The notes under the pieces are model-generated. The model saw nothing but the letters and a program-made list of their open reading frames with translations, made no database searches and was not told the DNA's origin. From Lacipirellulaceae bacterium (GTDB lineage: Bacteria > Planctomycetota > Planctomycetia > Pirellulales > Lacipirellulaceae), in the NCBI GenBank assembly GCA_035249585.1, contig DATFGJ010000457.1, positions 1-29,390 on the forward strand: a stretch of DNA of 29,390 nucleotides, read 5' to 3'. Shown one piece after another: positions 4,587 through 20,655 of the stretch. The position numbers and the translations under genes were made by a program. Positions within the stretch are counted from its first letter, which is position 1. Every line of letters starts with the position of its first letter.

Positions 4587-4965
4587 AGGCACGACTCATC
4601 GCATTTTCTCTATCCTCCGTTTCCGTATAGGTGCGCAGAACTCTTTGGTGTGGGTTTTGCGCTCCTGTCGCGATTTAGACACAGCTTGAATGCGCCGGTC
4701 GGCGCGCAGCGGTAGCGCAGTCAGTCGCAAGAACTGAGGTTGCGGCTAGCGGCTCAGAACAAATTCCACGATTTTCAAAGAACGAATCGCCGGGGCACGA
4801 CGTGTGCACATTCTAGCACACATGGTATACATTTGTCAATCATATTTTCGGCCGGGACGGATGGCGATTGCCAACCACTATTCGGTTAATCCCCGGCGCG
4901 GTACATTTCACGGCGGGCGACAAACGTCTCTTATCTTTGTCCGATGCCTTCGTCTGCGAGCACCT

Positions 4966-5562
4966 ATGTTCGGTCTTCATAGTCCAGTTGCTTGGCTCGC
5001 GGTGTTTGCGGCCGGGCTATCGATCGGCTGCGAAACCGATTCCAGCCCACAACAAGCCATCGCGGCTGAACAGGTCATTTCGGCGGAGATGCCAGAAGCG
5101 GCAAATGAGCGGCACGTTCCATCCGACAAGTTGCGAGGCGCCGGTCGCGCCAATCTCGACTTTTACACGGTGGACCACTACGACGTTGCTCGAAATGCCG
5201 CCGAAGATCTGGCGCTCACCATCACGCGGGCCCAAGCCGAGAAGAAGCACATCCTGGTTCAGGTGGGTGGCGACTGGTGCGGCTGGTGCCATCTCATGAG
5301 TGACTATATCGAAACGAACGACCAGGTGCGCGAAAAGATTCGGCAGAACTATCTAATCATGAAAGTCACCTATGATGGGGACCAGAAAAACGAAGCGTTC
5401 CTTTCGCAGTATCCGGACATACCCGGCTACCCACACTTGTTCGTTTTGGACTGGGACGGCAATCTGTTGCATTCGCAAGGCACGGCGGAACTGGAGGAAG
5501 GACGAGGCTACAACGACAAGGTCTATCTTGAGTTCTTGGACAAATGGAAACCGGCCTCCTAG
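4966..5562 (+). CDS. Exported thioredoxin-fold protein, possibly a lipoprotein
   Basis: GGDWCGWCH CxxC motif and cis-Pro-type GYPHLFVLD segment. Hydrophobic N-terminus ending in IGC from ATG 4966, which is preferred over the ORF-track start at 4804. Confidence 0.85.
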   Translation: MFGLHSPVAWLAVFAAGLSIGCETDSSPQQAIAAEQVISAEMPEAANERHVPSDKLRGAGRANLDFYTVDHYDVARNAAEDLALTITRAQAEKKHILVQVGGDWCGWCHLMSDYIETNDQVREKIRQNYLIMKVTYDGDQKNEAFLSQYPDIPGYPHLFVLDWDGNLLHSQGTAELEEGRGYNDKVYLEFLDKWKPAS

Positions 5563-8444: not shown

Positions 8445-10316
8445 TTACCGCTCGATGATTTCAATCATCCGGTCGACATCGCCGACATCAACGTCTTGCT
8501 TCGCACCGCGCGGCCAGTAGACCGTTAACCGGCGGACTGTCGTGTTGTTGCCAAGCCCGAATGTCATCGGCAGCTCGACCTGCGACAAGTAGCTGCGCGA
8601 CGGCATCACTTGGCGGCATAGCACGCCGTCTTCAAGCTCCAGTTCAATCCGCGCCCCAATCGCGTCGCGATTCGAGTGCGTGCCGACAAGTTTGCACCGC
8701 AGCCAGTGATGACCGAGATTCTGGTCATTGCGCAATAGCCGCGGCGATTGGCCCGTGGCCGTCACGAGAACGTCCAGGTCGCCGTCGCCGTCGATGTCGG
8801 CGTATGCGGCCCCGCGGCCAACCAGCGGCTTGAACAGGTCCGGGCCCGATTGGCTTTCGCGCACGGGCAGAAACTCCGTGTCGGCTTGCGGGCCCGCGTT
8901 CCAAAACAGGTGCGGCGGCTGCTCGTAGTGCTGGCTGGGCTGCACGCGATTGATGTCCTCTTCCAAATGACCGTTCGCTGTCAAAAGATCAAGCCGGCCG
9001 TCGAGGTCGTAATCGAAACAGAACAGGCCGAAGGTGAGCGACGTCCGGGTCACCGGCCCGAGGCCGGTGGGAATCGCTTCGTCCATGAACTGCATCTGGT
9101 CGCCATAGCTTACGTAGAGGGCCGTCATTTCATTGGCAAAGTTTCCGATGGCCACGCCCAGCACTTTGTTGCCACGGATGCGGGCGATGTCGATGCCCAT
9201 CGCACCGCGCGCGTTGCCGTTCATGTCGAATGCGATGCCGGATGTAGCCGCGATCTCGCGGAAGGTGCCAGCGCGCTGGTTGTGCAACAGAAAATTTTGC
9301 ACCGTGTCATTCGCCACGAGAATGTCGATCCAGCCATCCTCGTCGAGGTCCGCAAAAACGACGCCCAATGACTTGGCCAGCGGCACGCCCGTGTGCGGGT
9401 TCCGGATGTGCAAGCCGGCCTGGTGGGCCACATCGCGAAAACGTCCGCCGCCTTCGTTGCGATACAAGTAAGGAAGCGTGCCCTCAAAATTCTGCGGCCG
9501 GCCGTAAGCCCTCCCGCCGCCGGTCAGCTGAAAGTTCTGTCCCTCGTCATATTCGCGCGACCATTTGACATAATTGCCGACGAACAAATCCAGGTCGCCG
9601 TCGTTATCGTAATCGAGCCAGCCGCAACAAGTGCTCCACGCATCGTCATCGCCGCCCACGCCTGTCTCGTCGGTCACGTCGCGAAACTTGCCGCCGCCCA
9701 CGTTATGGAACAATCGATTCTTGCCCAGCGCCGAGATGAAGACATCCACGTTGCCGTCGTTGTCGTAATCGCCGACCGCGGCGCCCATTCCATAGAGTGA
9801 TACATCGAAGCCCGATCCTGCCGTCACATCGGTGAAATTGCCGCGGCCGTCGTTGCGGTATAGCCTGGAGGTTGCCGCCGACGTTTCGGACGACTGCTCA
9901 TCCCAGGGCCAGCGATCGAGGCTGTTGACCAGCAACAAGTCTTGGTCGAGGTCATTGTCGAAATCAAAGAACGCGCAGCCGCCTCCCATCGTTTCCGGCA
10001 GCAACTTTCGACCGGTTGCCGCATTGGCGTGACGGAAGTTAATACCTGCTTGCTGCGTAATATCCGGGAATGGCACGTTCGGCACCGTGGCTTGACCGGC
10101 CGCGCGCGTTGCAACTTCGGCCAGTTCCGTCTGCTGGACCGGCTTGTCGGGCGGCGCAGGCCGCAATGCATACACAGCCGTGCCGACAGCGATCGCCGCC
10201 ACAACGATCACAGCGAGCGACCAGCGCAGAGCGACGCCGATCACGGCGTCATCACGCTCGAGCGTATCCGGCTCAATTTCGGCATCACTAACAGATTGAT
10301 TTTGTTTCCGGTTCAA
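8445..10316 (-). CDS. CRTAC1-family protein (FG-GAP/VCBS repeats plus C-terminal ASPIC/UnbV domain) with an N-terminal membrane anchor
   Basis: ETMGGGCAFFDFDNDLDQDL, GDYDNDGNVD, DYDNDGDLDL, DLDEDGWID, DYDLDGRLD, ADIDGDGDLD repeats; SNRDAIGARI and SYLSQVELPMTFGLG. TTG start overlaps the upstream stop (TTGA). Confidence 0.92.
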   Translation of the reverse strand: MNRKQNQSVSDAEIEPDTLERDDAVIGVALRWSLAVIVVAAIAVGTAVYALRPAPPDKPVQQTELAEVATRAAGQATVPNVPFPDITQQAGINFRHANAATGRKLLPETMGGGCAFFDFDNDLDQDLLLVNSLDRWPWDEQSSETSAATSRLYRNDGRGNFTDVTAGSGFDVSLYGMGAAVGDYDNDGNVDVFISALGKNRLFHNVGGGKFRDVTDETGVGGDDDAWSTCCGWLDYDNDGDLDLFVGNYVKWSREYDEGQNFQLTGGGRAYGRPQNFEGTLPYLYRNEGGGRFRDVAHQAGLHIRNPHTGVPLAKSLGVVFADLDEDGWIDILVANDTVQNFLLHNQRAGTFREIAATSGIAFDMNGNARGAMGIDIARIRGNKVLGVAIGNFANEMTALYVSYGDQMQFMDEAIPTGLGPVTRTSLTFGLFCFDYDLDGRLDLLTANGHLEEDINRVQPSQHYEQPPHLFWNAGPQADTEFLPVRESQSGPDLFKPLVGRGAAYADIDGDGDLDVLVTATGQSPRLLRNDQNLGHHWLRCKLVGTHSNRDAIGARIELELEDGVLCRQVMPSRSYLSQVELPMTFGLGNNTTVRRLTVYWPRGAKQDVDVGDVDRMIEIIER

Positions 10317-13303
10317 CCGCCACCCCCCCCATTACTCGTGGTTTTCGAAGTGGTGTCAAATCCGTCTCCCTTTGGGAGAGGGTAGGGTGAGGGTGCCTTG
10401 GTTACCGCCGATTCACCCTCACCCCGGCCCTCTCCCGGAGGGAGAGGGAGGGCGGGTGGCTCCGCGCTCCGTAGGCCCGGCGCGCCGGGCCGCTGGAGCG
10501 GATACTTCACAACCGCTTCGGCCGCGTGATTGGCGGCCGGGTAGCGCTCGCGGGCCAATCTCTCGGCGCGGCCCTGAGCGTTGTCATCTGGCTTATAGCG
10601 AAGGTGCAGCTCTTCGTGCTCGCGGGAGCGCTCGGCGTCGCCCAGCTCGGCGTACAAAAGTTGCAAGTTATGATGGGCCGTCACGTTTTCCGAATCGATA
10701 GCAATGGTTCGTTTAAACACGTCGACTGCTTCCTGCCAGGCTTTGCGCGCCTCGTCGGCTCGACCTTGCCGAGCCCGTAATCGGCCCAGATCGAAAAGCG
10801 TTTGGCCGAGCAGGTTAATCACCTCGTAGTCGTAGCTGAAGTCGAAGCCCCGCTTCTGCATGTCTGGTGTGCGGTCCTCGAGCACGCTGCGCAGGTTCAC
10901 GATCGCCTCCTGCAAACGTCCCTGCTGCCGGTTGATGTCGCCGCTGAGCCAGGCCCAGGTCCATCGCGGAAAGCCTTCCTCGCCGCTGTAGCGATTGGCG
11001 CGCTGGAGCGCGGCCACCGCCTCGTCCAACCGGCCCTCCGCGCTATAGACCCGTGCCAGGTTCATCGGCCCGTCCCACCGATTGAGCGCTTCGACCTGCG
11101 TAAACGCTTCGGCCGCCTGACGCAGCTCGGCCCGACCTTTGAGCAATAGCCCAATGCCATAGTCGTTCCATCGTTGCCAAAGCGGAATATCGCGGTCGGG
11201 GTTTTCGACCGTTGCCTCAACGCCCTCGATTGGAAACGTGATCTGGTCCACGGCCAATGTCGTGATCGGGAGCTGATTGTTATACGGCTTGCCTGGTTCG
11301 TGGCCGCGAATTTGCTGCCCCAGTTTCTGGTTGCTCTGCGCGACAAAATCCATGTACCGCTGGTCGAACTTGCGATACTGCAGCTTCATTTCAACAGTCA
11401 CCGGCGCGTCGAGATCGTCTGGCAGCACGAGCTCGTAGTGAACTGTCTGCCCGGCGCCCGGTGGAATTTGATGGTTGTACAGCGGCGTGAAAATATCCTG
11501 CGGATTCCGCCGGTCGATGCGGTTGCCGTCCTTGTCGAGCATGAACACATTGACGAAATGGGCCCAGGGATCGACCTCATTGCCGCGCTCCGGGTCCAGC
11601 GCGCCGCTGCGGCCGATGATGCGGTTGCCGGATTTCACGGTGACGTCGAGCCAGACTTCGTTCGAGTCGGCCGTGCCTTGCGTAAACAGGTGGCCTAGTT
11701 TCACGGTTCGGATGACCGTTTCCAGTAAGTACGTTTTGCCGCGGACGAGCGTCGGTGTTTCCGGGCGCAGCGGCGCGATCAGCCGCCCATCGATCTCGCC
11801 GCCTTCGCGCAAGCCAAACAGGTCGACCCGCATCACGCCTTCCAGGAATTTCTGGTGGGCCGCAATGACGTCTGGCTTATCGCGCAGCCAGGCGACGCCG
11901 GTGTTCGCCGCCGGGAACAGATGGTCGTGCACGCTCAGCTCGGTTGCGCCGGCAAAGAACTTAGCGCCGAAGTCGCCGGACGGTTTTAGCGGCATGTGGC
12001 AGCTGCTGCAATTCGCTTCGGCTTTCGGCGGGTAATAGAAGCTTCGCGCGCCGTGACCCGAGACGCCGCTCAAGAGGAACGGATCGTAATGGTTTTGCCC
12101 GCGGAGGAATTCCTTGTAGTGGTTCAATGCCAGCGGCAAGTGCACCTTGTGGCAGGTCGAGCAAAACTCGGCCGTGCGATGAAAATCCTTCAAAAAAGTC
12201 TTTTTGTGGAAGGCCGGCTTGGCCTTTACGAGCTGGTTGTTGACCCATTGCAAAACCGCGCTCTCGCTGAACGCAAACGGGTAGTGCAGCGGCTCCTCGA
12301 TCGTGTAGTCGGCGTTGCCGCGGGTGCTGTTGACGTTGGTGATCGAATGGCAAACCGAGCAGGTGATGCCGGAGTGGGCCGTTGGATGATTGATGGTGTC
12401 GAACTTCGGATCGTCAAATGCGCCGCTGAAGAACGGCACCGGGTCGTGGCAGCCGGCGCACCAGCGCGAGGCTTGCACGTTGCCGTCGCGTTTAAGAGCC
12501 ACTTCTCGGGTTTCGGTCACGCTGGCCAGGTACGGCTCGTTGTTAAACGAGCTGAAGCGGTGCACGCTCTCGCTCCAGGCCGCGTGCACGTCGGCGTGGC
12601 ACTTCTTGCAGTATTGGTCGTTCGTAAGAGTGGCGGCCGGAATGAAATTGCCCGACGCCGTTCGGGCCAGCGACGGCTCGAAGTATTTCACGCCCGAATC
12701 CGGCCCAACGGCGAACCAGTTGCGCGGGTCTTCGGCATGCAGCCAGATCATTGCCAGCACAACGGCGCCGACAAAAGCCGCGTAGCTTAAGCCCACTCGC
12801 CACTTGATCCGCGGCCCGGCCAGCCGATGCAGCCAGTACAACCACGCCGCCACGAGCGGGCAGGCCACGTGCAACCAGTAAATCGTGGAGCGGGCCAGCG
12901 GCTGCCGCAGATCGAATCCCCCGATGCGCATCAGCAATATCCCGGTGACCAGGACGCCGATCGACACGGCGAAGAGTGCATAGCCGATGCGGATCGCCCG
13001 GCGGTTGCGGCGATTCCGCGATGCCGCCATGTGCGCGAGCCCGAAGACAATGAACGGCACGACCAGCACAAGTCCCAGGACGAGGTGCCCCAGGAACATG
13101 TACTGGTAGAAGTAGTCCTGATACGTGCGGCCGGTGAACCACTCCAGCGCGGTGATTGCGGCCAGGTAAGCGGAATTGGCGCCGAGCACCGCAACCAAAG
13201 CAAATAGGAAATACAGCAGCTTGCGCAGCCGCGGCCCGACCGCGCGCACGTATTTCCTCGGCGGCGAGGCAGGAGGCTCAGGGCGCAATGACGTTTCCGG
13301 CAT
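10313..13303 (-). CDS. Membrane-anchored multiheme c-type cytochrome with C-terminal TPR region
   Basis: About five N-terminal TM segments containing His; five CxxCH motifs (CKKCH, CAGCH, CSVCH, CSTCH, CSSCH); TPR-like helices at the C-terminus. Start taken at ATG 13303; 13336 is possible. Confidence 0.9.
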   Translation of the reverse strand: MPETSLRPEPPASPPRKYVRAVGPRLRKLLYFLFALVAVLGANSAYLAAITALEWFTGRTYQDYFYQYMFLGHLVLGLVLVVPFIVFGLAHMAASRNRRNRRAIRIGYALFAVSIGVLVTGILLMRIGGFDLRQPLARSTIYWLHVACPLVAAWLYWLHRLAGPRIKWRVGLSYAAFVGAVVLAMIWLHAEDPRNWFAVGPDSGVKYFEPSLARTASGNFIPAATLTNDQYCKKCHADVHAAWSESVHRFSSFNNEPYLASVTETREVALKRDGNVQASRWCAGCHDPVPFFSGAFDDPKFDTINHPTAHSGITCSVCHSITNVNSTRGNADYTIEEPLHYPFAFSESAVLQWVNNQLVKAKPAFHKKTFLKDFHRTAEFCSTCHKVHLPLALNHYKEFLRGQNHYDPFLLSGVSGHGARSFYYPPKAEANCSSCHMPLKPSGDFGAKFFAGATELSVHDHLFPAANTGVAWLRDKPDVIAAHQKFLEGVMRVDLFGLREGGEIDGRLIAPLRPETPTLVRGKTYLLETVIRTVKLGHLFTQGTADSNEVWLDVTVKSGNRIIGRSGALDPERGNEVDPWAHFVNVFMLDKDGNRIDRRNPQDIFTPLYNHQIPPGAGQTVHYELVLPDDLDAPVTVEMKLQYRKFDQRYMDFVAQSNQKLGQQIRGHEPGKPYNNQLPITTLAVDQITFPIEGVEATVENPDRDIPLWQRWNDYGIGLLLKGRAELRQAAEAFTQVEALNRWDGPMNLARVYSAEGRLDEAVAALQRANRYSGEEGFPRWTWAWLSGDINRQQGRLQEAIVNLRSVLEDRTPDMQKRGFDFSYDYEVINLLGQTLFDLGRLRARQGRADEARKAWQEAVDVFKRTIAIDSENVTAHHNLQLLYAELGDAERSREHEELHLRYKPDDNAQGRAERLARERYPAANHAAEAVVKYPLQRPGAPGLRSAEPPALPLPPGEGRGEGESAVTKAPSPYPLPKGDGFDTTSKTTSNGGGGG
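10365..10448. repeat. REP-like inverted pair (CCCTCTCCC-N3-GGGAGAGGG family) inside the cytochrome gene's 3' end
   Basis: CTCCCTTTGGGAGAGGGTAGGGTGAGGGTG followed by CACCCTCACCCCGGCCCTCTCCCGGAGGGAGAGGG; translated as PLPPGEGRGEG...PSPYPLPKGDG. Confidence 0.8.
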
Positions 13304-13461
13304 AAATCCGATCCGAAGGCCGGCGTGGCAGATCAAGTCCGCGGGAATTGACGCTTGCGGTTTAACTTCGCAGCCGTTCGCATTGCAATTGCGCTACGTT
13401 GAACGACACGATGACCGAGTCGCAATTGAACGACTGCCGAAGCGCTACGTCAAAATGCGCG

Positions 13462-13863
13462 CTAAGCGCGAGGCGGATGATAGATCAGCGCGGGGAACCC
13501 CTTGGCGCGTTTTACGTTCGTCTGGCAAGCGCTTCCCGTTTGGCTCGCGCACTCCGTAAGTGTGACGACGCAGCTCTGAAGAGCCGACTTCACAGGCGTG
13601 AACGAAACTTCGGCCGGAGCGGGCGCTGCCGGTTGATCCGGGATGCGAGTGCAGTAGGGACCATTACACGGTGGCCCGGGCGAATGGTCTGCAATTTCGT
13701 CCCGCGCGACTTCCACAGGGCTGCTCGCGCCGGGAGCGGAGGCGGACTTATCGCTATGCTGCAGCCAGTCACCGCACGATGCGTGCGCGACGGAAGCTAT
13801 TACCGCCAACAGCATCCAGCATATCGAGGCCGCAAAAACGGCCGATGCACAGCGCAGGACCAC
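13462..13863 (-). CDS. Small secreted Cys/His protein A (SCGDWLxH / PCxGPxC / HPPRA)
   Basis: GGGAG then GTG at 13863; signal peptide ending VAHA; motifs shared with the divergent paralog at 14155-14601. Confidence 0.75.
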   Translation of the reverse strand: MVLRCASAVFAASICWMLLAVIASVAHASCGDWLQHSDKSASAPGASSPVEVARDEIADHSPGPPCNGPYCTRIPDQPAAPAPAEVSFTPVKSALQSCVVTLTECASQTGSACQTNVKRAKGFPALIYHPPRA

Positions 13864-14154
13864 GAACGTGACTCCCTGATGGAGCGGAGCGGCGAACTGC
13901 AGGCCGCTATCTAGGCTAGGAATGTCCCCAAGTCTCAGCCTATCCCTGATGGATTGGAGTGTCAATGAATTCAGTGGGGTAAAGGTCGCCGGCGGACCGT
14001 CGATAAGTCGAGTCCACGATTGACTTATCGCTCGCTGTGCCCGCGGCGACCGTCGCCCCAATCCGGGCAAAATCACTTGCAATCTTTTGTGCACTCAGTA
14101 CAGTGATTTCTTGGATGCAGCATGGGGGGCGTTGCGGTTTCTCTTCAATGGCCT

Positions 14155-14601
14155 ATGCACCATCGTGTGCGCTTTAACCGGTGTGCTAACGCGGCACTTT
14201 TGCTGCTGGGCTGTGTGCTGCTGCAAAGTGCGTGGGCGATGCGCGCCGTCGCATCCTGCGGCGATTGGTTGGCACACCCTGACGGGTCGCATAGCAGCGC
14301 GCAGCGGTCCATGAGCGACGACCAAAGGAATGCCGACTCTGCCGCTTCAGTCGGCGGAACTTTTGCATCAAATAAGGACTCGATTCCGTTGCCCTGCGAT
14401 GGTCCATCCTGTCGGCGTGCGCCATCCAGACCAGTACCCGTGATTCCGCCGTCCAACGTTAGCGCCACCGACAAGCTGCTACTGGCCGGTCATGACGTCG
14501 TTCGCGAGCCTCTGAGCCGCTGGACGTTTACGACCGGCGATTCTTCTGCGCATGCGATTCGCGGATTCCCGGTAGGTATCGAGCATCCTCCGCGCGCTTA
14601 G
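14155..14601 (+). CDS. Small secreted Cys/His protein B (SCGDWLxH / PCxGPxC / HPPRA)
   Basis: Signal peptide ending RAVA, then SCGDWLAH, PCDGPSC and GFPVGIEHPPRA-stop. Start may be 14122 or 14155. Confidence 0.75.
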   Translation: MHHRVRFNRCANAALLLLGCVLLQSAWAMRAVASCGDWLAHPDGSHSSAQRSMSDDQRNADSAASVGGTFASNKDSIPLPCDGPSCRRAPSRPVPVIPPSNVSATDKLLLAGHDVVREPLSRWTFTTGDSSAHAIRGFPVGIEHPPRA

Positions 14602-14832
14602 AGCTATCTCTCTTCGATCGCCTTGCAGCGCTCGTCCTGCGCATGGCAGCCACCGCTTATCGACTCTTTTGGTCGGGCGGCAGCGGCTGCGCTGTGGCAA
14701 CCTGCTGTGATGGTTCAAGCATGCGAGTCAATCGACCGGTAAGTGACCGGTTGATGCAATCCATTTCATTGTGTGGCCGTAAGTATTCATTTGATGCGGC
14801 GCATTACATCATTTTCCGCGAGCGTCTTCATC

Positions 14833-15894
14833 ATGTCGACACCACGAAGAAATTGGGGCTTCACTCAAGTGGAGCTGCCGTTCGAGCGATTCAGGGTAGC
14901 GAGCAAGCGCGAGCGCCGCGCGTTTACGCTTGTCGAGCTACTGGTCGTCATCGCGATCATCGGGATATTGGTCGCCTTACTCTTACCGGCAATTCAGGCG
15001 GCGCGCGAGGCCGGCCGACGCACAGCCTGCATGAACAACTTGCGCCAAATGGGTTTAGCCATGCTCAACTATGAGACAAGCTACAAGGTGTTCCCGCCAT
15101 CGGACGTGCTGGTGCCTGGCCCCGGCGGCGCTCCAACGTCGCTCGGCCTGTCGGTGCATGCCCGGCTGCTGCCGTTTGTCGAGGAAGCATCGTTGCGAAC
15201 TTTGGTGAACTTCAGCGCGGCCTACAATCACGCTTCAAACGACTCTGCGCGGACGACGCGCGTGGCGATGTTTGTCTGCCCGTCGGATGGCGGTGAGAAC
15301 GCGGTTTCCGTTCCCGCGCCCGGCGCGCCCACAAGTTACCATGCCAACCAAGGATCCGGCGTGGTGTGGAGCATTACGACGAATCCGAGCGACCCGAACT
15401 ACGCCCTCGGACCGCCAAACGGCGTGTTGATTCGTAACGGCGGCGTGAAGGCCGCCCACATCATCGACGGATTGAGCCACACGGCGGCGTTCGCCGAGCG
15501 TGTCATCGGCGACGGCAGCGATGAAATCGCGACCGAGGAAAGCGATACATTTGCCCCTGGCACGACGCATCCGGGCGTCGAGCGGGCATATGCCGATTGT
15601 CGTGCGATCGATATCACAGATCTGTCCAAACAGGGCAATTCCGAGGTCGGTTTTCCCTGGCTGCGCGCATATCACAGCACGACAATTTATTTTCACAACA
15701 ACACTCCGAACGGCCGCTCGTGCATGTACCCGCCCGGACAGATCATGACCACCGCCGGCAGCCGCCATAGCGGCGGCGTGAATATGATGCTCTGCGACGG
15801 CTCGGCACGCTTTGTTTCCGAGGATATCAGCCGGCCCACCTGGCAGGCGCTCGGCAGCCGAAATGGCGAGGAGATTATTCAGGAGCAGTTTTAA
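14833..15894 (+). CDS. DUF1559 (SBP_bac_10) prepilin-type N-terminal cleavage/methylation protein
   Basis: AFTLVELLVVIAIIGILVALLLPAIQAAREAGRR, CMNNLRQMGLA, DGLSHT, and the H-X9-DG motif RHSGGVNMMLCDGS. Confidence 0.95.
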   Translation: MSTPRRNWGFTQVELPFERFRVASKRERRAFTLVELLVVIAIIGILVALLLPAIQAAREAGRRTACMNNLRQMGLAMLNYETSYKVFPPSDVLVPGPGGAPTSLGLSVHARLLPFVEEASLRTLVNFSAAYNHASNDSARTTRVAMFVCPSDGGENAVSVPAPGAPTSYHANQGSGVVWSITTNPSDPNYALGPPNGVLIRNGGVKAAHIIDGLSHTAAFAERVIGDGSDEIATEESDTFAPGTTHPGVERAYADCRAIDITDLSKQGNSEVGFPWLRAYHSTTIYFHNNTPNGRSCMYPPGQIMTTAGSRHSGGVNMMLCDGSARFVSEDISRPTWQALGSRNGEEIIQEQF

Positions 15895-16080: not shown

Positions 16081-17421
16081 ATGAAATACGTTATGGCGCT
16101 ACTAGCTTTGTGCTTCTCTGCATGGACAAATCCGTTGCGAGCGGACGGACAAGCCTCCGATACGCCCAAGCCCGTCCCCGCGACGCGGCCAGAAATGAAG
16201 GCCGCGCTCGAGTCGCTCAAATCACGCACTCCGCGGCTGCCGCTGCCCGACTCCAATGCGCAGGGCGGCGTGAACAACGGCCGCATGCGGGCTGCGTACT
16301 TGCCTGAATCCTGGGGGGCCGGAGGCGGACGCGGCAGCCGGTCGGCCAGCCGCCAAGGCTCACGTGACGGCGGCCGTTCTGCACGCTTCGGTCAAAATCC
16401 GGATTCGGCATTTGATTACGCCTTTACAACGTCGCTGTTCTGGATCGTTTCGCGCGGCAACAACTGCCACTACTGCCTCGGACACCAGGAGCTCAAGCTC
16501 CGCGGGGCCGGATTGGATGACGACACGATCGCGTCGCTTGATAGCGACTGGAGCCGGTTCGACTCGCGGCAGCAGGCCGCGCTTGCCTACGCGCGCAAGC
16601 TGACGCTCGAGCCGCAGCTCGTTGGCGAGGGCGACATAGCGCTACTCAAGCCGTTGTTCTCGGACGGAGAAATCATCGAGATGACTTATAGCATCGCCCG
16701 TTTCAACGCGACTAACCGCTGGACAGACGGCATGGGCGTACCGCAAGACAGCCGGTTCGGCGAGGAAGACTCACGGCTCGATACGCCGACCAGCGAAGAG
16801 TTCCAATCGACCGTGAGCGTGGCGGCGCCGACGACGCGCGCTTCGCGGCCTGGGTTGCCGGCGTTTGATGAAGTGACAAACGCGATTACGGCTAGCCGCG
16901 AACGCGAAGCTCGGGTCGCTCTGCCCAGCGTGGATGAAGCCCGCAAGGCGCTTCCCAGCATTGTGGACCGCGAGCTATTCAATTGGGAACGCGCCATGGT
17001 GGGTGTGCCTGGCACCGGCGCCATGCAAGTCAGCACGTTGAACACCATCATGAGCGACGAGCATTTGCCCGTTCGGCTCAAGGCCGAGCTGGCATTGATT
17101 TCTGCCGTGCACAATCGCGCCTGGTACGCCGTGGGCCATGCGGCGCACCGGCTCCGCACACTCGGTGTCTCGACGGAAGACATGGTCGCGTTGTTCGACA
17201 GCGACGCAAGCGCGTCGAATAATTCGGCGGCCGCGTATCAGCTCGCCGCCAAGCTCACGGCCGACCCGCATTTGATCACCGACGCCGACATCGCCCGCGT
17301 GCGCGAATGGTTCAGCGACCGGGAAACGGCTCAGATCGTCCACGTGATTTGCACGGCCAACATGTTCGACCGGTTCACCGAAGCGCTCGGCCTGCCGCTT
17401 GAGGACGGCGTTTGCGAATAG
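16081..17421 (+). CDS. Secreted two-domain AhpD/carboxymuconolactone decarboxylase-like protein
   Basis: Signal peptide MKYVMALLALCFSAWTNPLRA. Domain 1 has NNCHYCLGH; domain 2 has the homologous NRAWYAVGH without Cys. Both domains end in AhpD-like segments (KLTxxP...F(S)DxE...N..xR.TD/E). Confidence 0.8.
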   Translation: MKYVMALLALCFSAWTNPLRADGQASDTPKPVPATRPEMKAALESLKSRTPRLPLPDSNAQGGVNNGRMRAAYLPESWGAGGGRGSRSASRQGSRDGGRSARFGQNPDSAFDYAFTTSLFWIVSRGNNCHYCLGHQELKLRGAGLDDDTIASLDSDWSRFDSRQQAALAYARKLTLEPQLVGEGDIALLKPLFSDGEIIEMTYSIARFNATNRWTDGMGVPQDSRFGEEDSRLDTPTSEEFQSTVSVAAPTTRASRPGLPAFDEVTNAITASREREARVALPSVDEARKALPSIVDRELFNWERAMVGVPGTGAMQVSTLNTIMSDEHLPVRLKAELALISAVHNRAWYAVGHAAHRLRTLGVSTEDMVALFDSDASASNNSAAAYQLAAKLTADPHLITDADIARVREWFSDRETAQIVHVICTANMFDRFTEALGLPLEDGVCE

Positions 17422-17507: not shown

Positions 17508-20360
17508 CTAGTCAACACGCGCAACCGTAATGGGATTCGATCGGCCTCCGGTCGGCACGACAATTTCAACCGCAATCGAGCGGCCGAACGTCAATTGATG
17601 TTCGTCGACGTCAAGCGACGCAGCTTGCTCTTCGCCGTGTTTTACGACGTATCGCCCGGTTGCCAGACCGCCGAGCCGCAATAGCGTGGTGTGCTCCGCC
17701 GTGTTGTCGCTTTCGAGCGAAAAGCGGGCCTTGCGCAGATCCTCTTGCAGAATAAGCGGTGTGTCGGAAGCGAAGCGGCCGTTGTCGAGTTCCAGATGCA
17801 GTTTGCGGTCGCCAAGAAGTGCATGGAATCGGCGACGGACACCATCCTTTGGGGTTACCTCAATGCCATCCTCGGTCGCCCGCCAATCGCCGCCGAAGCA
17901 GGTCCGGCCAAAGATCGGATCATCTGCGATCACTGTGCGGGCCGCGCGCAAGGCGCCACAGTAGCCCAGGTCGATCTCGCAGGCGTAGTACCACGAGCCG
18001 CGGTGGTGCGGCTGGCCGAGCCACGTGCGCCCGAAGGGCGCCGGTTCAAACCCGCCGCCGGCGCCGCCATCATTGGCCTGGCCCGGATACCAATAGCCGT
18101 AGTTCGACTCCGGAGTTCCCGTGTTCATGAGGGCCCAGGCGCTCAGAAATGAAGCATAGCCGAGCCTCAAGTGGGCGCTCGGGTCGGCCGCGAAGTGCAG
18201 GGCGTAATCCAGCACGGCCCAGCCACCCATCTGCGACATGTATGTCAGCGTGTACGAGTTGCCGCCGCTGCCGCGGTAGTCGCTTCCCAATAGGTAATAC
18301 GCCGGCTCAATCGATCCGCGGCAAAAAAGGTTCGCCGCGATCTGCTTCTCCAGGAATCGCTCAGCCGCTTCGAGCGCCTTTGGGCCATCCGCCCCGTTTT
18401 GATGTTTTGCCGCCTGCTGCATGGCGTACTTCGCGAGCGCGTGCGTCGATTCAAAGCCGGTGGAATCGAACGGGTACTCTGAGCGAAATAAGTCCGGCCG
18501 CCCATTGACGAAGAAGTCGACCTTTCGTTGCCAATGTTCGCGCAACGACTCGGCCTCGGCGGCCATTCCGGCGGCCGCGAGATCATCGATCAGATCCACG
18601 ATCACTAGTTCGTTATAGAACCCGGTGCGGTAGGCGCTCCATCGCTCGACCTCGTATGGCACGGTGAACAGCGCGATGGCGGTCCCGTACGCCCGCTGAA
18701 GATACTCGCGCGCAGGCAGTGCGGTCGTGATTTGCGGATGGCTCTTGGCCACGCGGTACATGCTGTGATACATCAAGATGATGTGCGGATAGTCGTAACA
18801 TCGCCAGATATGGAGCCGGCCGTTGCGCCCCGGGTCGTCGCTCTCGCGGTTGCGCTTCCAATCCTGGATGCCATAAATCGCGTAGGGGTACTTCTCGTCC
18901 GTTGTCATCTGCAGGCCGCCCCACACGAAGTGCTTGATGTAATAATCCAGGGCCTCGACTTCGCTTTGCAGCGGATGCTCAGCATTCTTAGCTGCCAGAA
19001 ACGCCGGCTTGCTCAATCCCGGGTCGTCGCAAGTGACGGCGTAAATGCGAAATCCGGAGATGCGGTCGTAGTTGTCCGGGCCCAATAGCACCTGGCTCTC
19101 GATGTTCCATTCGGCCAGGAGGCCGTTGTACCACCTCGTCGGATCGCGGTGCTGGCGGCGGGCAATGAACGCGCCGCGCTTTTTGATCAGCGTCTCAAGC
19201 GGCTCCGCGACGAAGAACTCCAAGTGCATTTGACGGTTGTCGCCGTAGCGCACCGTCAGCCGATTCTCGCCCAGTTTGCGAAAGCGAACCTGGTACAGCT
19301 GATAGTCGCCGCGCGGAGCCTGCTGCACGATTTCCGTCATATCCGAATACTCGGCGTCGATCGCGTGAATGGCATGCTCCGTCCGCAGGGCGAACTGCGC
19401 GAAGAGATCGCTGGGCACGGTCATCCCGGGAACGACGTGGACATCGACCAGGCCTTCGTCGACAAGCGTTTGTCGAATGCCGTCCTCGCCCTCGGCCCAG
19501 CGGAATTTCAGGCCGTAGGTTTTCGCGTCGCCCGCTTGGCCTTTGGGTGCCAGCGAGAGACTGGTGTGCGGCTGGCGCCAATTGCATCCGTGAGCTTTGG
19601 CCACGGCGCCGGCTGCTGTCGAGTGGATGTACGCGTGGAACACCCGCCGCGCTCGACTCGCGACGCCGCTCGCGCTTGCGTCGCTCGCGGCCTGGGCGTC
19701 CGGTAGCTGCTGCGAGCCAGTATCCCAGTACTCGAAGTGCGTGTTCTCTGCCGGCGTCAGCATTAAAGTGGGACCGGCACTGTCCGATCGGGTCCAAAAT
19801 ACAAACGAGGCGTGCCCGGAGATGAAGCTGTGCTTCATGAGCATCGGGCCTCTGGATCGTACGCGACCGCGGCCAAACGGCGAGCTGATCGGCAGCGGCA
19901 GGGCAAGGTCGCCGATTTCGAGCAGCCCGTCCGACACGTTTTGCAGGCCGATGTTCCAGGAAATCGAATCTTCGTCGATCGCAAGGCGACTTTCAATTTC
20001 AAGCGCTGGCGATTGACCGTCCGTCAATCGATAGGTTAACCCACCGGAGGAAGAAATCTCTAATCTGTCGTCGACGGATTGGGCGATCTGTGAAGTCTCG
20101 GCGACGCGCCAATCACTCTCGCCTGCCTTGCGCCATCGCAGAACGATATCGCCCAATCGGCGACCCTCAGGAAGATATTGGACGTCGCCGCGATCACCGT
20201 GGCGCCGCAAGCTGACAATGGCGCCCTTGTCGAATTGCACATCGAATTGCGATTGCACGGAAGCCGCCTGGAGCGGTCGGTGGTCTGGTTGAACCGCACC
20301 CAACGCGGCCGTGCCGACGATGCTAATGGCGCTGGCAAGACCGGGAATTCGGATTCCCAT
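17508..20360 (-). CDS. DUF5695-like secreted protein, putative glycoside hydrolase of unknown specificity
   Basis: Signal-like N-terminus from ATG 20360. Segments VWGGLQ, WRCYDYPH, SEYPFDSTGFES, YMSQMGGW and EIDLG match my recollection of DUF5695; not verified by HMM. Confidence 0.7.
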   Translation of the reverse strand: MGIRIPGLASAISIVGTAALGAVQPDHRPLQAASVQSQFDVQFDKGAIVSLRRHGDRGDVQYLPEGRRLGDIVLRWRKAGESDWRVAETSQIAQSVDDRLEISSSGGLTYRLTDGQSPALEIESRLAIDEDSISWNIGLQNVSDGLLEIGDLALPLPISSPFGRGRVRSRGPMLMKHSFISGHASFVFWTRSDSAGPTLMLTPAENTHFEYWDTGSQQLPDAQAASDASASGVASRARRVFHAYIHSTAAGAVAKAHGCNWRQPHTSLSLAPKGQAGDAKTYGLKFRWAEGEDGIRQTLVDEGLVDVHVVPGMTVPSDLFAQFALRTEHAIHAIDAEYSDMTEIVQQAPRGDYQLYQVRFRKLGENRLTVRYGDNRQMHLEFFVAEPLETLIKKRGAFIARRQHRDPTRWYNGLLAEWNIESQVLLGPDNYDRISGFRIYAVTCDDPGLSKPAFLAAKNAEHPLQSEVEALDYYIKHFVWGGLQMTTDEKYPYAIYGIQDWKRNRESDDPGRNGRLHIWRCYDYPHIILMYHSMYRVAKSHPQITTALPAREYLQRAYGTAIALFTVPYEVERWSAYRTGFYNELVIVDLIDDLAAAGMAAEAESLREHWQRKVDFFVNGRPDLFRSEYPFDSTGFESTHALAKYAMQQAAKHQNGADGPKALEAAERFLEKQIAANLFCRGSIEPAYYLLGSDYRGSGGNSYTLTYMSQMGGWAVLDYALHFAADPSAHLRLGYASFLSAWALMNTGTPESNYGYWYPGQANDGGAGGGFEPAPFGRTWLGQPHHRGSWYYACEIDLGYCGALRAARTVIADDPIFGRTCFGGDWRATEDGIEVTPKDGVRRRFHALLGDRKLHLELDNGRFASDTPLILQEDLRKARFSLESDNTAEHTTLLRLGGLATGRYVVKHGEEQAASLDVDEHQLTFGRSIAVEIVVPTGGRSNPITVARVD

Positions 20361-20378
20361 GCCGCGCCGGAGTGTTTG

Positions 20379-20655
20379 ACCACGAAGAACACAAAGAATC
20401 GCGAAAAGTCCAAAGTTAAACATTCTTCTGTTGCTATTTGCCGACTTCCAAACGGTGTAAACGGAACGCGGCACGCAGAGGCCTGCGGCGAACTCCGCCG
20501 AGCGGCGCGGAGATCGCGGAGGTAGTACCCACTAATTTCCGCTAATCCTCACTGATTGCTGATTAGTGCTGATTAGCGGCAATTAATGTTCCACTCATCT
20601 TTTGCACTGAATTTATTACTGTGCTGCTCTGCGTCCTCGGCGCCTCCGCGTGAGA
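20379..20655. repeat. Mosaic of intergenic palindromic repeats (nested hairpins)
   Basis: Half element ACCACGAAGAACACAAAG at 20379. Outer CACGCAGAGG-type arms at 20472-20521 and 20627-20655. Inner CACTAAT-type hairpin with arms 20530-20556 and 20562-20588. Confidence 0.75.

Follow-up and report, generated by a model that had tools for sequence, protein, structure and literature searches.

The window analysed here is a stretch of 29,390 nucleotides (nt) from a Lacipirellulaceae bacterium (contig DATFGJ010000457.1 of assembly GCA_035249585.1, positions 1 to 29,390 of the forward strand). Near its middle lie two small, divergently oriented genes, here called miniB and miniA, each of which encodes a putatively exported Cys/His peptide ending in HPPRA and stands at the head of a redox-type gene set. 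The two genes and their motifs are listed below.

13462..13863, minus strand: miniB, 133 amino acids (aa), GTG start at 13863, TAG stop at 13462-13464, heading the cytochrome-TPR/CRTAC1 operon
13756..13779, minus strand: miniB motif 1, SCGDWLQH, directly 3' of the predicted A-x-A signal-peptidase site
13651..13671, minus strand: miniB motif 2, PCNGPYC (C-x-G-P-x-C)
13465..13500, minus strand: miniB C-terminal tail, GFPALIYHPPRA, with the Pro-Pro codons at 13471-13476, 59 residues past the second Cys of motif 2
13864..14154, no strand: divergent region between miniB and miniA, 291 base pairs (bp), inside which the promoters are presumed to lie
14155..14601, plus strand: miniA, 148 aa from the ATG at 14155 (159 aa from the ATG at 14122), TAG stop at 14599-14601, heading the DUF1559/AhpD-like operon
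14254..14277, plus strand: miniA motif 1, SCGDWLAH
14392..14412, plus strand: miniA motif 2, PCDGPSC
14563..14598, plus strand: miniA C-terminal tail, GFPVGIEHPPRA, with the Pro-Pro codons at 14587-14592, 59 residues past Cys97

miniA and miniB are divergent paralogues (32% identity, E 1e-12, BLASTP), in which the identities are concentrated in the signal peptide, in SCGDWL(Q/A)H, in PC(N/D)GP(Y/S)C and in a terminal GFP-x-x-I-x-HPPRA-stop, and both genes have CGC GCT TAG as their 3' end. These features had been described in a sequence-only reading of the window, and all its statements on the two sequences were confirmed. The resemblance of the two peptides is far above chance; the same motif set was found again in 552 protein clusters (clustered at 50% identity, E<=0.001, exhaustive profile search). 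Neither miniA nor miniB has a Pfam or NCBIfam match, and both match the profile built from this family (E 1.5e-68 for miniA and E 2e-53 for miniB, the latter with orthologues P0013-P0019). The members are nearly all 120-200 aa long, the end of the profile coincides with the end of the protein, and in public records they are annotated as "hypothetical proteins". In a sample of 401 genomes from the whole phylum, the family was present in 16, each of which belongs to the Planctomycetia (Pirellulales and Planctomycetales), and the named carriers are Lacipirellulaceae metagenome-assembled genomes (MAGs), Stieleria, Roseiconus, Rhodopirellula, Novipirellula, Neorhodopirellula, Roseimaritima, Gimesia aquarii and a Fuerstiella MAG. 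The small Cys peptides form a previously undescribed, unnamed family of the Planctomycetia.

Conservation in the family is concentrated in islands. Residues C46, G47, C92, G94, C97, P156 and P157 are invariant across 121 representatives, and the information content reaches 3.5 bits per position in (S/T)CGDWLAH, 2.4 in PC-x-GP-x-C-R-x-x-P and 2.7 in the last 13 residues, whereas both linkers are poorly conserved (0.65 and 0.88 bits per position). Between the second Cys of motif 2 and the Pro-Pro pair, the peptides span 59.1 +/- 0.66 residues (range 58-62, n=121) and the length of the first linker, between the Cys motifs, is 41.7 +/- 5.8 residues (range 30-66, n=121); therefore, the first linker is free to change its length and the second is not, although the sequence of the second linker is as weakly conserved as that of the first.

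The tail has the consensus G-F-P-x-R-I-(E/D)-(H/R)-P-P-(R/Q/K)-x-stop, in which the residue preceding the Pro-Pro pair (PP) is His in 108/162 members and Arg in 46/162, and the position two before PP is Glu in 81/162 and Asp in 53/162. The sequence-only reading had expected a conserved C-terminus, and the tail is in fact the best-conserved block after the Cys motifs; it had also expected homologues to stand first in operons with an invariant HPPR, of which the 5' position behind a long spacer was found and the invariance was not, since only PP is invariant, with H/R before it and R/Q/K after it. Exactly two residues separate PP from the stop codon in 117 of 155 members. Longer tails (up to 11 residues after PP, e.g., in Gimesia) are unconserved, the conserved block stopping at PP+1, so that a fixed free C-terminus is unlikely to be the functional element. 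The codons for the His, Pro and Ala residues of the tail differ synonymously among species, which indicates selection on the peptide. The identity of the stop codon was also considered as a signal and rejected, as 9/12 genes from the family to which the window belongs use TAG and those of Planctomycetaceae use TGA, against a genome background of 40% TGA, 32% TAG and 28% TAA.

The signal peptide is general in the family, with a hydrophobic core in 147/149 members and an R/K-containing n-region in 141/149. Alanine occupies positions -4 (119/149) and -2 (139/149) relative to the invariant first Cys, and the cleavage site is therefore predicted to be of the A-x-A type, leaving (S/T)-C-G-D-W-L as the mature N-terminus. 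Reading of the A-S-C junction as a lipoprotein site was ruled out, since the residue at -3 is not L/V/I and that at -1 is often Thr. The peptides of the family are, by these signals, predicted to be exported. Beyond the signal peptide little structure was predicted. An AlphaFold2 model (121-sequence alignment) has a mean predicted local distance difference test score (pLDDT) of 67.9 and a predicted template modelling score (pTM) of 0.28, with helices only at residues 13-39 (the signal peptide) and 115-128, and for the same protein the pTM of the ESM Atlas model is 0.16. No PDB relatives were found by sequence, the search with the family profile returning chance hits only (E 0.41), and a complex prediction of mature miniB with the TPR region of the cytochrome encoded downstream (ESMFold2) gave a score of 0.00, with miniB at pLDDT 28-29, and speaks neither for nor against such a contact. 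The mature product is thus predicted to be non-globular and unstructured.

These predictions bear on a first possible role, in which the small proteins do their work in the periplasm as parts of a haem-propeller/peroxidase module, for instance as a metallochaperone, as a small subunit or as the partner in a thiol-disulfide relay, and in which their Cys/His residues bind metal or shuttle electrons and their tail docks a partner such as the TPR region. The invariant Cys/His chemistry and the moderate AlphaFold2 confidence near motif 2 (pLDDT 70-80) are in line with such a role. The lack of a predicted globular fold speaks against it, and so do the residues that follow PP+1, which vary in number and in sequence, unlike a C-terminal docking peptide.

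The arrangement of the genes downstream of miniB and miniA is the following.

13304..13461, minus strand: miniB-cytochrome spacer, 158 nt, untranslated; folding z -0.42 versus shuffled sequences
10313..13303, minus strand: pentahaem c-type cytochrome, membrane protein with a C-terminal TPR region, five CxxCH motifs and four transmembrane-like segments (Pfam Cytochrome_C554 and TPR); first gene downstream of miniB
8445..10316, minus strand: CRTAC1-like FG-GAP/ASPIC-UnbV propeller, overlapping the cytochrome stop by 4 nt
14602..14832, plus strand: miniA-DUF1559 spacer, 231 nt, untranslated; folding z +0.51 versus shuffled sequences
14833..15894, plus strand: DUF1559 prepilin-like protein with an N-terminal methylation motif and H-X9-DG; first gene downstream of miniA
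16081..17421, plus strand: secreted protein with two AhpD/CMD-like regions (matches to CMD and to TIGR01926, 'peroxidase-related') and one CHYC motif

The sequence-only reading had placed the two genes some 160-230 nt upstream of co-oriented pairs (multihaem cytochrome and CRTAC1; DUF1559 and AhpD-like); the measured spacers and the domain matches agree with it. The cytochrome of the window is 55-94% identical to its counterparts in 14 related genomes. DUF1559 is encoded 57 times in the window's genome, an estimated ~1-2% of the genes.

The same arrangement recurs across genomes. We examined 61 family genes in their neighbourhoods (33 from whole genomes and 28 from named genome records), and in ~50 of them the next co-oriented gene is either the cytochrome-TPR gene, then followed by the CRTAC1-like gene, or the DUF1559/AhpD-like set, in which the DUF1559 gene is usually followed by a small open reading frame and the AhpD-like gene. 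Variant downstream sets comprise an AhpD-like protein with a TPR/FG-GAP/ASPIC protein, or a single protein that has both EF-hand and redoxin/AhpC-like domains; all the downstream products are drawn from one functional pool. In loci with an unambiguous start codon downstream, the spacers measure 127-174 nt (13 cytochrome-type loci), 195-279 nt (5 DUF1559-type loci) and 216-496 nt (Pirellulaceae), unlike the downstream genes themselves, which abut or overlap. In many loci the upstream neighbour lies on the opposite strand. The cytochrome is present in 15 of 61 relatives, 12 of which also have the small gene (8/8 in the window's own family), and no genome among the 61 relatives has the small gene without the cytochrome. 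Divergent small-gene copies, ending in WRPPEAS, IDRPPRPTV, LERPPRLDG and IDRPPKSLRG, are located upstream of the cytochrome at a distance of 200-380 nt. In three cytochrome-bearing genomes that are 97-99% complete, no small gene was detected; their cytochrome-TPR genes, at L131, L138 (G050), L133 (G044) and L135 (G054), have no recognisable small Cys gene within 1.5 kb upstream and constitute natural 'leaderless' operons, useful for comparison. The small gene diverges much faster than its target: in G010, it is 54-66% identical to its counterparts versus 94% for the cytochrome, and in G023, G025 and G007, it is 34-38% identical versus 72-83%. In two MAGs (L024, G022:C9, 7565-8845; L025, G003:C25, 3700-7830), both small genes and the cytochrome are broken by frameshifts or in-frame stops, being either pseudogenes or assembly errors.

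The strict co-occurrence with the module, and the TPR region encoded next door, would again suit a periplasmic component. Yet the module exists without the small gene in the three nearly complete genomes, a single component would have to serve two operon types that share no protein, with the TPR region in only one of them, and the small gene is always set apart by a long spacer, whereas the true subunit genes of these operons overlap. Weighing these points together with the predicted lack of a fold, we consider this role the main rival of the reading preferred below, but less likely than it.

The neighbourhoods are also informative about two other possibilities. The export signal, the Cys/His motifs and the divergent pairing of the paralogues could be expected of a trans-acting periplasmic sensor or signalling peptide, reporting redox or metal status to a separate regulator; we regard this as improbable, since the conserved neighbours include neither a sensor kinase gene nor one for a sigma or anti-sigma factor, and it would leave the 59-residue ruler, the near-stop PP and the strict 5' cis position unexplained. 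Small size, Cys residues, absence of structure, export and short conserved motifs are likewise seen in precursors of ribosomally made, post-translationally modified peptides, such as a bufferin-like metallophore with a Sec signal. This reading seems very improbable, as no modifying enzyme (MNIO/DUF692, radical SAM, cyclodehydratase, etc.) is conserved in ~60 neighbourhoods.

A different type of function is suggested by comparison with the DUF2946 peptides, examples of which are CruR from Bordetella pertussis and CutF from Rhodobacter capsulatus (cutFOG). Both have an export signal and a CXXC (CruR) or CxxxC (CutF) motif, and both are encoded at the head of their operon, ahead of a long spacer (PMC9426467; PMC9973294; 10.1101/2025.02.05.636593); they carry RAPP (CruR) or EGPPPRL-stop (CutF) at the C-terminus (10.1101/2025.02.05.636593). 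The spacing between the Cys motif and the Pro residues of DUF2946 peptides is conserved (45 residues), and altered spacing breaks regulation (PMC9426467). The family described here resembles CutF in its cleavable Sec signal, in having an extra Cys near the mature N-terminus in addition to a C-x(n)-C motif (PMC9973294; 10.1101/2025.02.05.636593), in keeping a set distance to a Pro motif at the C-terminus, after which come Arg and one more residue (PPPRL-stop in CutF, PPR(A/V)-stop in the family), and in being encoded by the first gene of the operon before an untranslated spacer; the CutF peptide does not persist as a stable product (PMC9973294; 10.1101/2025.02.05.636593). It differs from CutF in having CX4C instead of CxxxC, PP instead of PPP and a ruler of ~59 instead of ~45 residues, in its targets, which are the multihaem cytochrome/CRTAC1 pair or the DUF1559/AhpD-like set where CutF has a multicopper oxidase, and in the stem-loop masking the ribosome-binding site in CutF, which in the family is predicted for some lineages only. 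With CruR, it shares the export signal, a Cys motif, conserved spacing, a Pro-Pro pair three residues from the end, and a place at the start of the operon, before a long spacer (162 nt in CruR) (PMC9426467). RAPP is absent from the family, the spacers of which lack the rut-like C-rich composition, and the phylum is different; furthermore, CruR acts without the signal peptide and senses cytoplasmic Cu, whereas the 59-residue ruler of the family suggests sensing past the translocon.

Despite these likenesses, homology between the two groups was not detected. miniA and miniB do not match PF11162 (DUF2946) at E<=0.1, none of the 121 representatives does so at E<=1, no DUF2946 match is found in the window's genome, and when the family alignment was compared by hhalign with 11 DUF2946 proteins from planctomycetes, the probability was 1.2%. 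The invariant Cys motif, C-x-G-P-x-C (CX4C) with a third invariant Cys in (S/T)CGDWL, is neither CXXC nor CxxxC, and the tail context, (E/D)(H/R)PP(R/Q/K), is neither RAPP nor PPP. By protein-language-model features the nearest named clusters are DUF2946, CzcI, DUF6769, DUF6660 and SecM, at 0.86-0.89, which is below the level that counts beyond a lead. The family is thus, as far as sequence comparison reaches, an analogue of CruR/CutF and not detectably a homologue. The sequence-only reading had proposed a planctomycete analogue of DUF2946/CruR with an xHPP motif: the parallel in architecture holds, while kinship with DUF2946 was not detectable and the motif, which is not RAPP-like, is better written (H/R)PP.

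Genuine DUF2946 genes were nevertheless found in the same slot, which we regard as the most telling outcome of the comparison. In Planctomycetaceae G305 and G263, and also in G290, DUF2946 genes ending in RGPPAV, RAPPMISLLIT and RAPPAA lie 54-374 nt upstream of DUF1559/H-X9-DG genes (L145, G305:C1, 6684-8231; L146, G263:C20, 460-2321 and 4413-6484; L108/L147, G290:C25). Two unrelated exported Cys/Pro-Pro peptides before DUF1559 are as expected if both are leader peptides of one functional type. The CruR/CutF papers that were consulted make no mention of DUF1559 as a DUF2946 target. Two further observations concern the planctomycete DUF2946 genes. In L146, a second DUF2946-like gene (tail PRGPPAC) precedes genes for a DUF58 protein and a transglutaminase-like protein. 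Seven other DUF2946 genes with RAPP/RGPP tails (L107, L109, L112, L113, L117, L120 and L121) are followed, after 75-111 nt, by a gene for a ~410-460-aa protein without Pfam or NCBIfam match, and these proteins may be another uncharacterised target family.

The family also has the outline of secretion-related arrest peptides. SecM, VemP, MifM, ApdA, ApdP and RQH are likewise small proteins with an N-terminal localisation signal, a variable spacer of >30 residues and a conserved C-terminal block, encoded upstream of the gene that they regulate, and the same traits, that is, a small unannotated protein encoded by an upstream open reading frame (uORF), with a localisation signal, a spacer of >30 residues and a conserved C-terminal block, are those used to screen for arrest peptides (PMC10987492) and are all found in the family. 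However, SecM/ApdA/ApdP-type peptides precede sec or yidC genes, whereas the family precedes cytochrome-TPR/CRTAC1 or DUF1559/AhpD-like genes, and the presence of two further invariant Cys motifs in it implies that a ligand or a redox state is read, and not translocation activity alone. The uA_LPPP candidates upstream of secA in Planctomycetota (PMC10987492) are likewise small uORF products from this phylum, with a run of conserved Pro among their final 15 residues; they differ in order (Phycisphaerales and others), in motif and in downstream gene, and no Cys motifs were reported for them.

We hypothesize that miniA and miniB serve as sensory leader peptides that are exported, act in cis and pause the ribosome at Pro-Pro in the manner of CruR and CutF, a reading to which we give a probability of roughly 0.55. 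It is supported by the conservation islands, the length ruler, the failure of structure prediction to yield a fold, the strict location 5' of both operon types that make up one redox module, and the use of the same slot by true DUF2946 genes. The tail would act like an arrest motif, and His and Arg, the two residues that dominate before PP, are the strongest stall enhancers in E. coli when they precede PPP (PMC4176338). The pausing at PP, the sensing during translation, the identity of the signal, the co-transcription and the RNA step are the parts of this reading that we infer.

In such a mechanism, the peptide would be translated at the head of the mRNA and threaded co-translationally through SecYEG by means of its cleavable signal peptide. 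When the ribosome reaches G-F-P-x-R-I-(E/D)-(H/R)-P-P, the C-x-G-P-x-C motif, ~59 residues upstream, would be just out of the translocon in the periplasm, as ~59 residues correspond roughly to one exit tunnel plus one SecYEG channel, and the N-terminal Cys/His motif would already be periplasmic. If the three Cys residues, those of this motif and that of the N-terminal Cys/His motif, then formed a disulfide or bound a thiophilic metal, the pull on the nascent chain would be altered, and the altered pull would set how long the ribosome dwells at Pro-Pro, whose codons lie two codons ahead of the stop. Across the spacer, this dwell time would set the expression of the downstream operon, either by freeing the ribosome-binding site or by blocking premature transcription termination. 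Since the downstream products include the multihaem cytochrome, AhpD-like and redoxin-like proteins, the periplasmic thiol-redox state, peroxide or a thiophilic metal (e.g., Cu) would be the most likely signal. The more specific proposal, that of an independently evolved, non-RAPP, ligand- or force-sensitive arrest peptide which reads the periplasmic thiol-redox or metal status and switches on an envelope module, convergent with the DUF2946 RAPP leaders before DUF1559, we hold tentatively, at somewhat less than even odds.

Several observations weigh against the leader-peptide hypothesis. At their arrest point, RAPP-like peptides have R (rarely H or Q), then A/G/S, then P-P or G-P. The tail is not RAPP-like, as it has E/D two positions before PP, where RAPP peptides require the Arg that is essential in SecM/ApdA/ApdP-type peptides and that could not be replaced in ApcA, ApdA and ApdP (PMC12992588), and, as regards the EF-P-dependent diprolyl pause motifs (XPPX), RPP without a third Pro gives no stall in E. 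coli (PMC4176338). The second linker is fairly conserved within a genus, which would also favour a periplasmic component, and a fixed length is also to be expected of a small structured metal site. At the RNA level, the two spacers of the window fold no more stably than shuffled sequences (z -0.42 and +0.51), no Rfam match was found in 12800-15400 at E<=1, no terminator was found on the correct strand of either spacer by a terminator scan, and rut-like composition is absent, the mean C-G skew being 0.00 over 30 spacers. Pairing of the stall region with the next gene's ribosome-binding site is strong in a few lineages only (mean z -0.39 over 32 loci). Lastly, a spacer could contain a separate promoter, for instance around an inverted repeat in the miniA-DUF1559 spacer:

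14731..14755, plus strand: hairpin or inverted repeat ATCGACCGGT-N5-ACCGGTTGAT, 10 bp (14731-14740 with 14746-14755), 5-nt loop, one G-U pair

This 10-bp hairpin, which had been recognised in the sequence-only reading, is present in both the minimum free energy and the centroid folds, lies ~78 nt upstream of the DUF1559 start, and is not followed by a T-run; a shorter hairpin occupies the equivalent position in the congener G010 (L023). The repeat could equally be an RNA hairpin or an operator, that is, a protein-binding site of a separate promoter. In the 291-bp divergent region between miniB and miniA, a promoter scan found no consensus sigma-70 site.

The outcome of the pairing analysis depended on the sequence context. 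With short flanks an enclosing helix was obtained in many loci, and with 150-nt flanks and a sliding-window duplex test in a subset only, several loci ranking last, so that the pairing was rejected as a general rule and is retained as a lineage-specific possibility. The outliers are L025_1 (z -5.6), in which the GAGGA region is bound by CAU-CCU-CCU-CGC, L081 (z -4.1), in which an A-U pair has been exchanged for G-C by a compensatory change, L029_0, L100, L090 and the L056/L058 pair (Pirellulaceae); in other lineages the pairing is missing or poorer than background. The RNA step may vary by lineage, as it does between CutF and CruR, or may not exist. Four Gimesia loci (L060, L065, L066 and L070) have a conserved extended hairpin that starts 3 nt past the stop of the small gene, within the first 40 nt, with outer arms AAACG/CGTTT and inner arms CAGAAAC/GTTTCTG, a G-U pair and compensating changes in L060, and no clear T-run.

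If miniA and miniB are indeed sensory leaders, sensing of the periplasm by a nascent chain, the principle of CruR and CutF, would extend from the DUF2946 peptides of Proteobacteria to an unrelated family of the Planctomycetia. Ribosome biochemistry would gain a new stalling motif, together with a natural length ruler (59 versus 45 residues) that can be compared across systems. There would also be a first experimental handle on a conserved, unexplained module, including one subgroup of the very large DUF1559 family, the trigger of the leader being probably what the module handles. If, instead, the small proteins were periplasmic components, they would represent a new small periplasmic Cys/His cofactor or chaperone for the multihaem cytochrome system.

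The outer neighbours in the window are unrelated genes, for glycoside hydrolases, a peptidase and a symporter. Just past the AhpD-like gene, a DUF5695 protein of 988 aa is encoded at 17508-20474 on the minus strand; its gene adjoins the module also in G022 and G026 and may belong to it. A thioredoxin-like protein (Thioredoxin_7/DsbH-like) is encoded at 4804-5562 on the plus strand, 3 kb past the CRTAC1-like gene.

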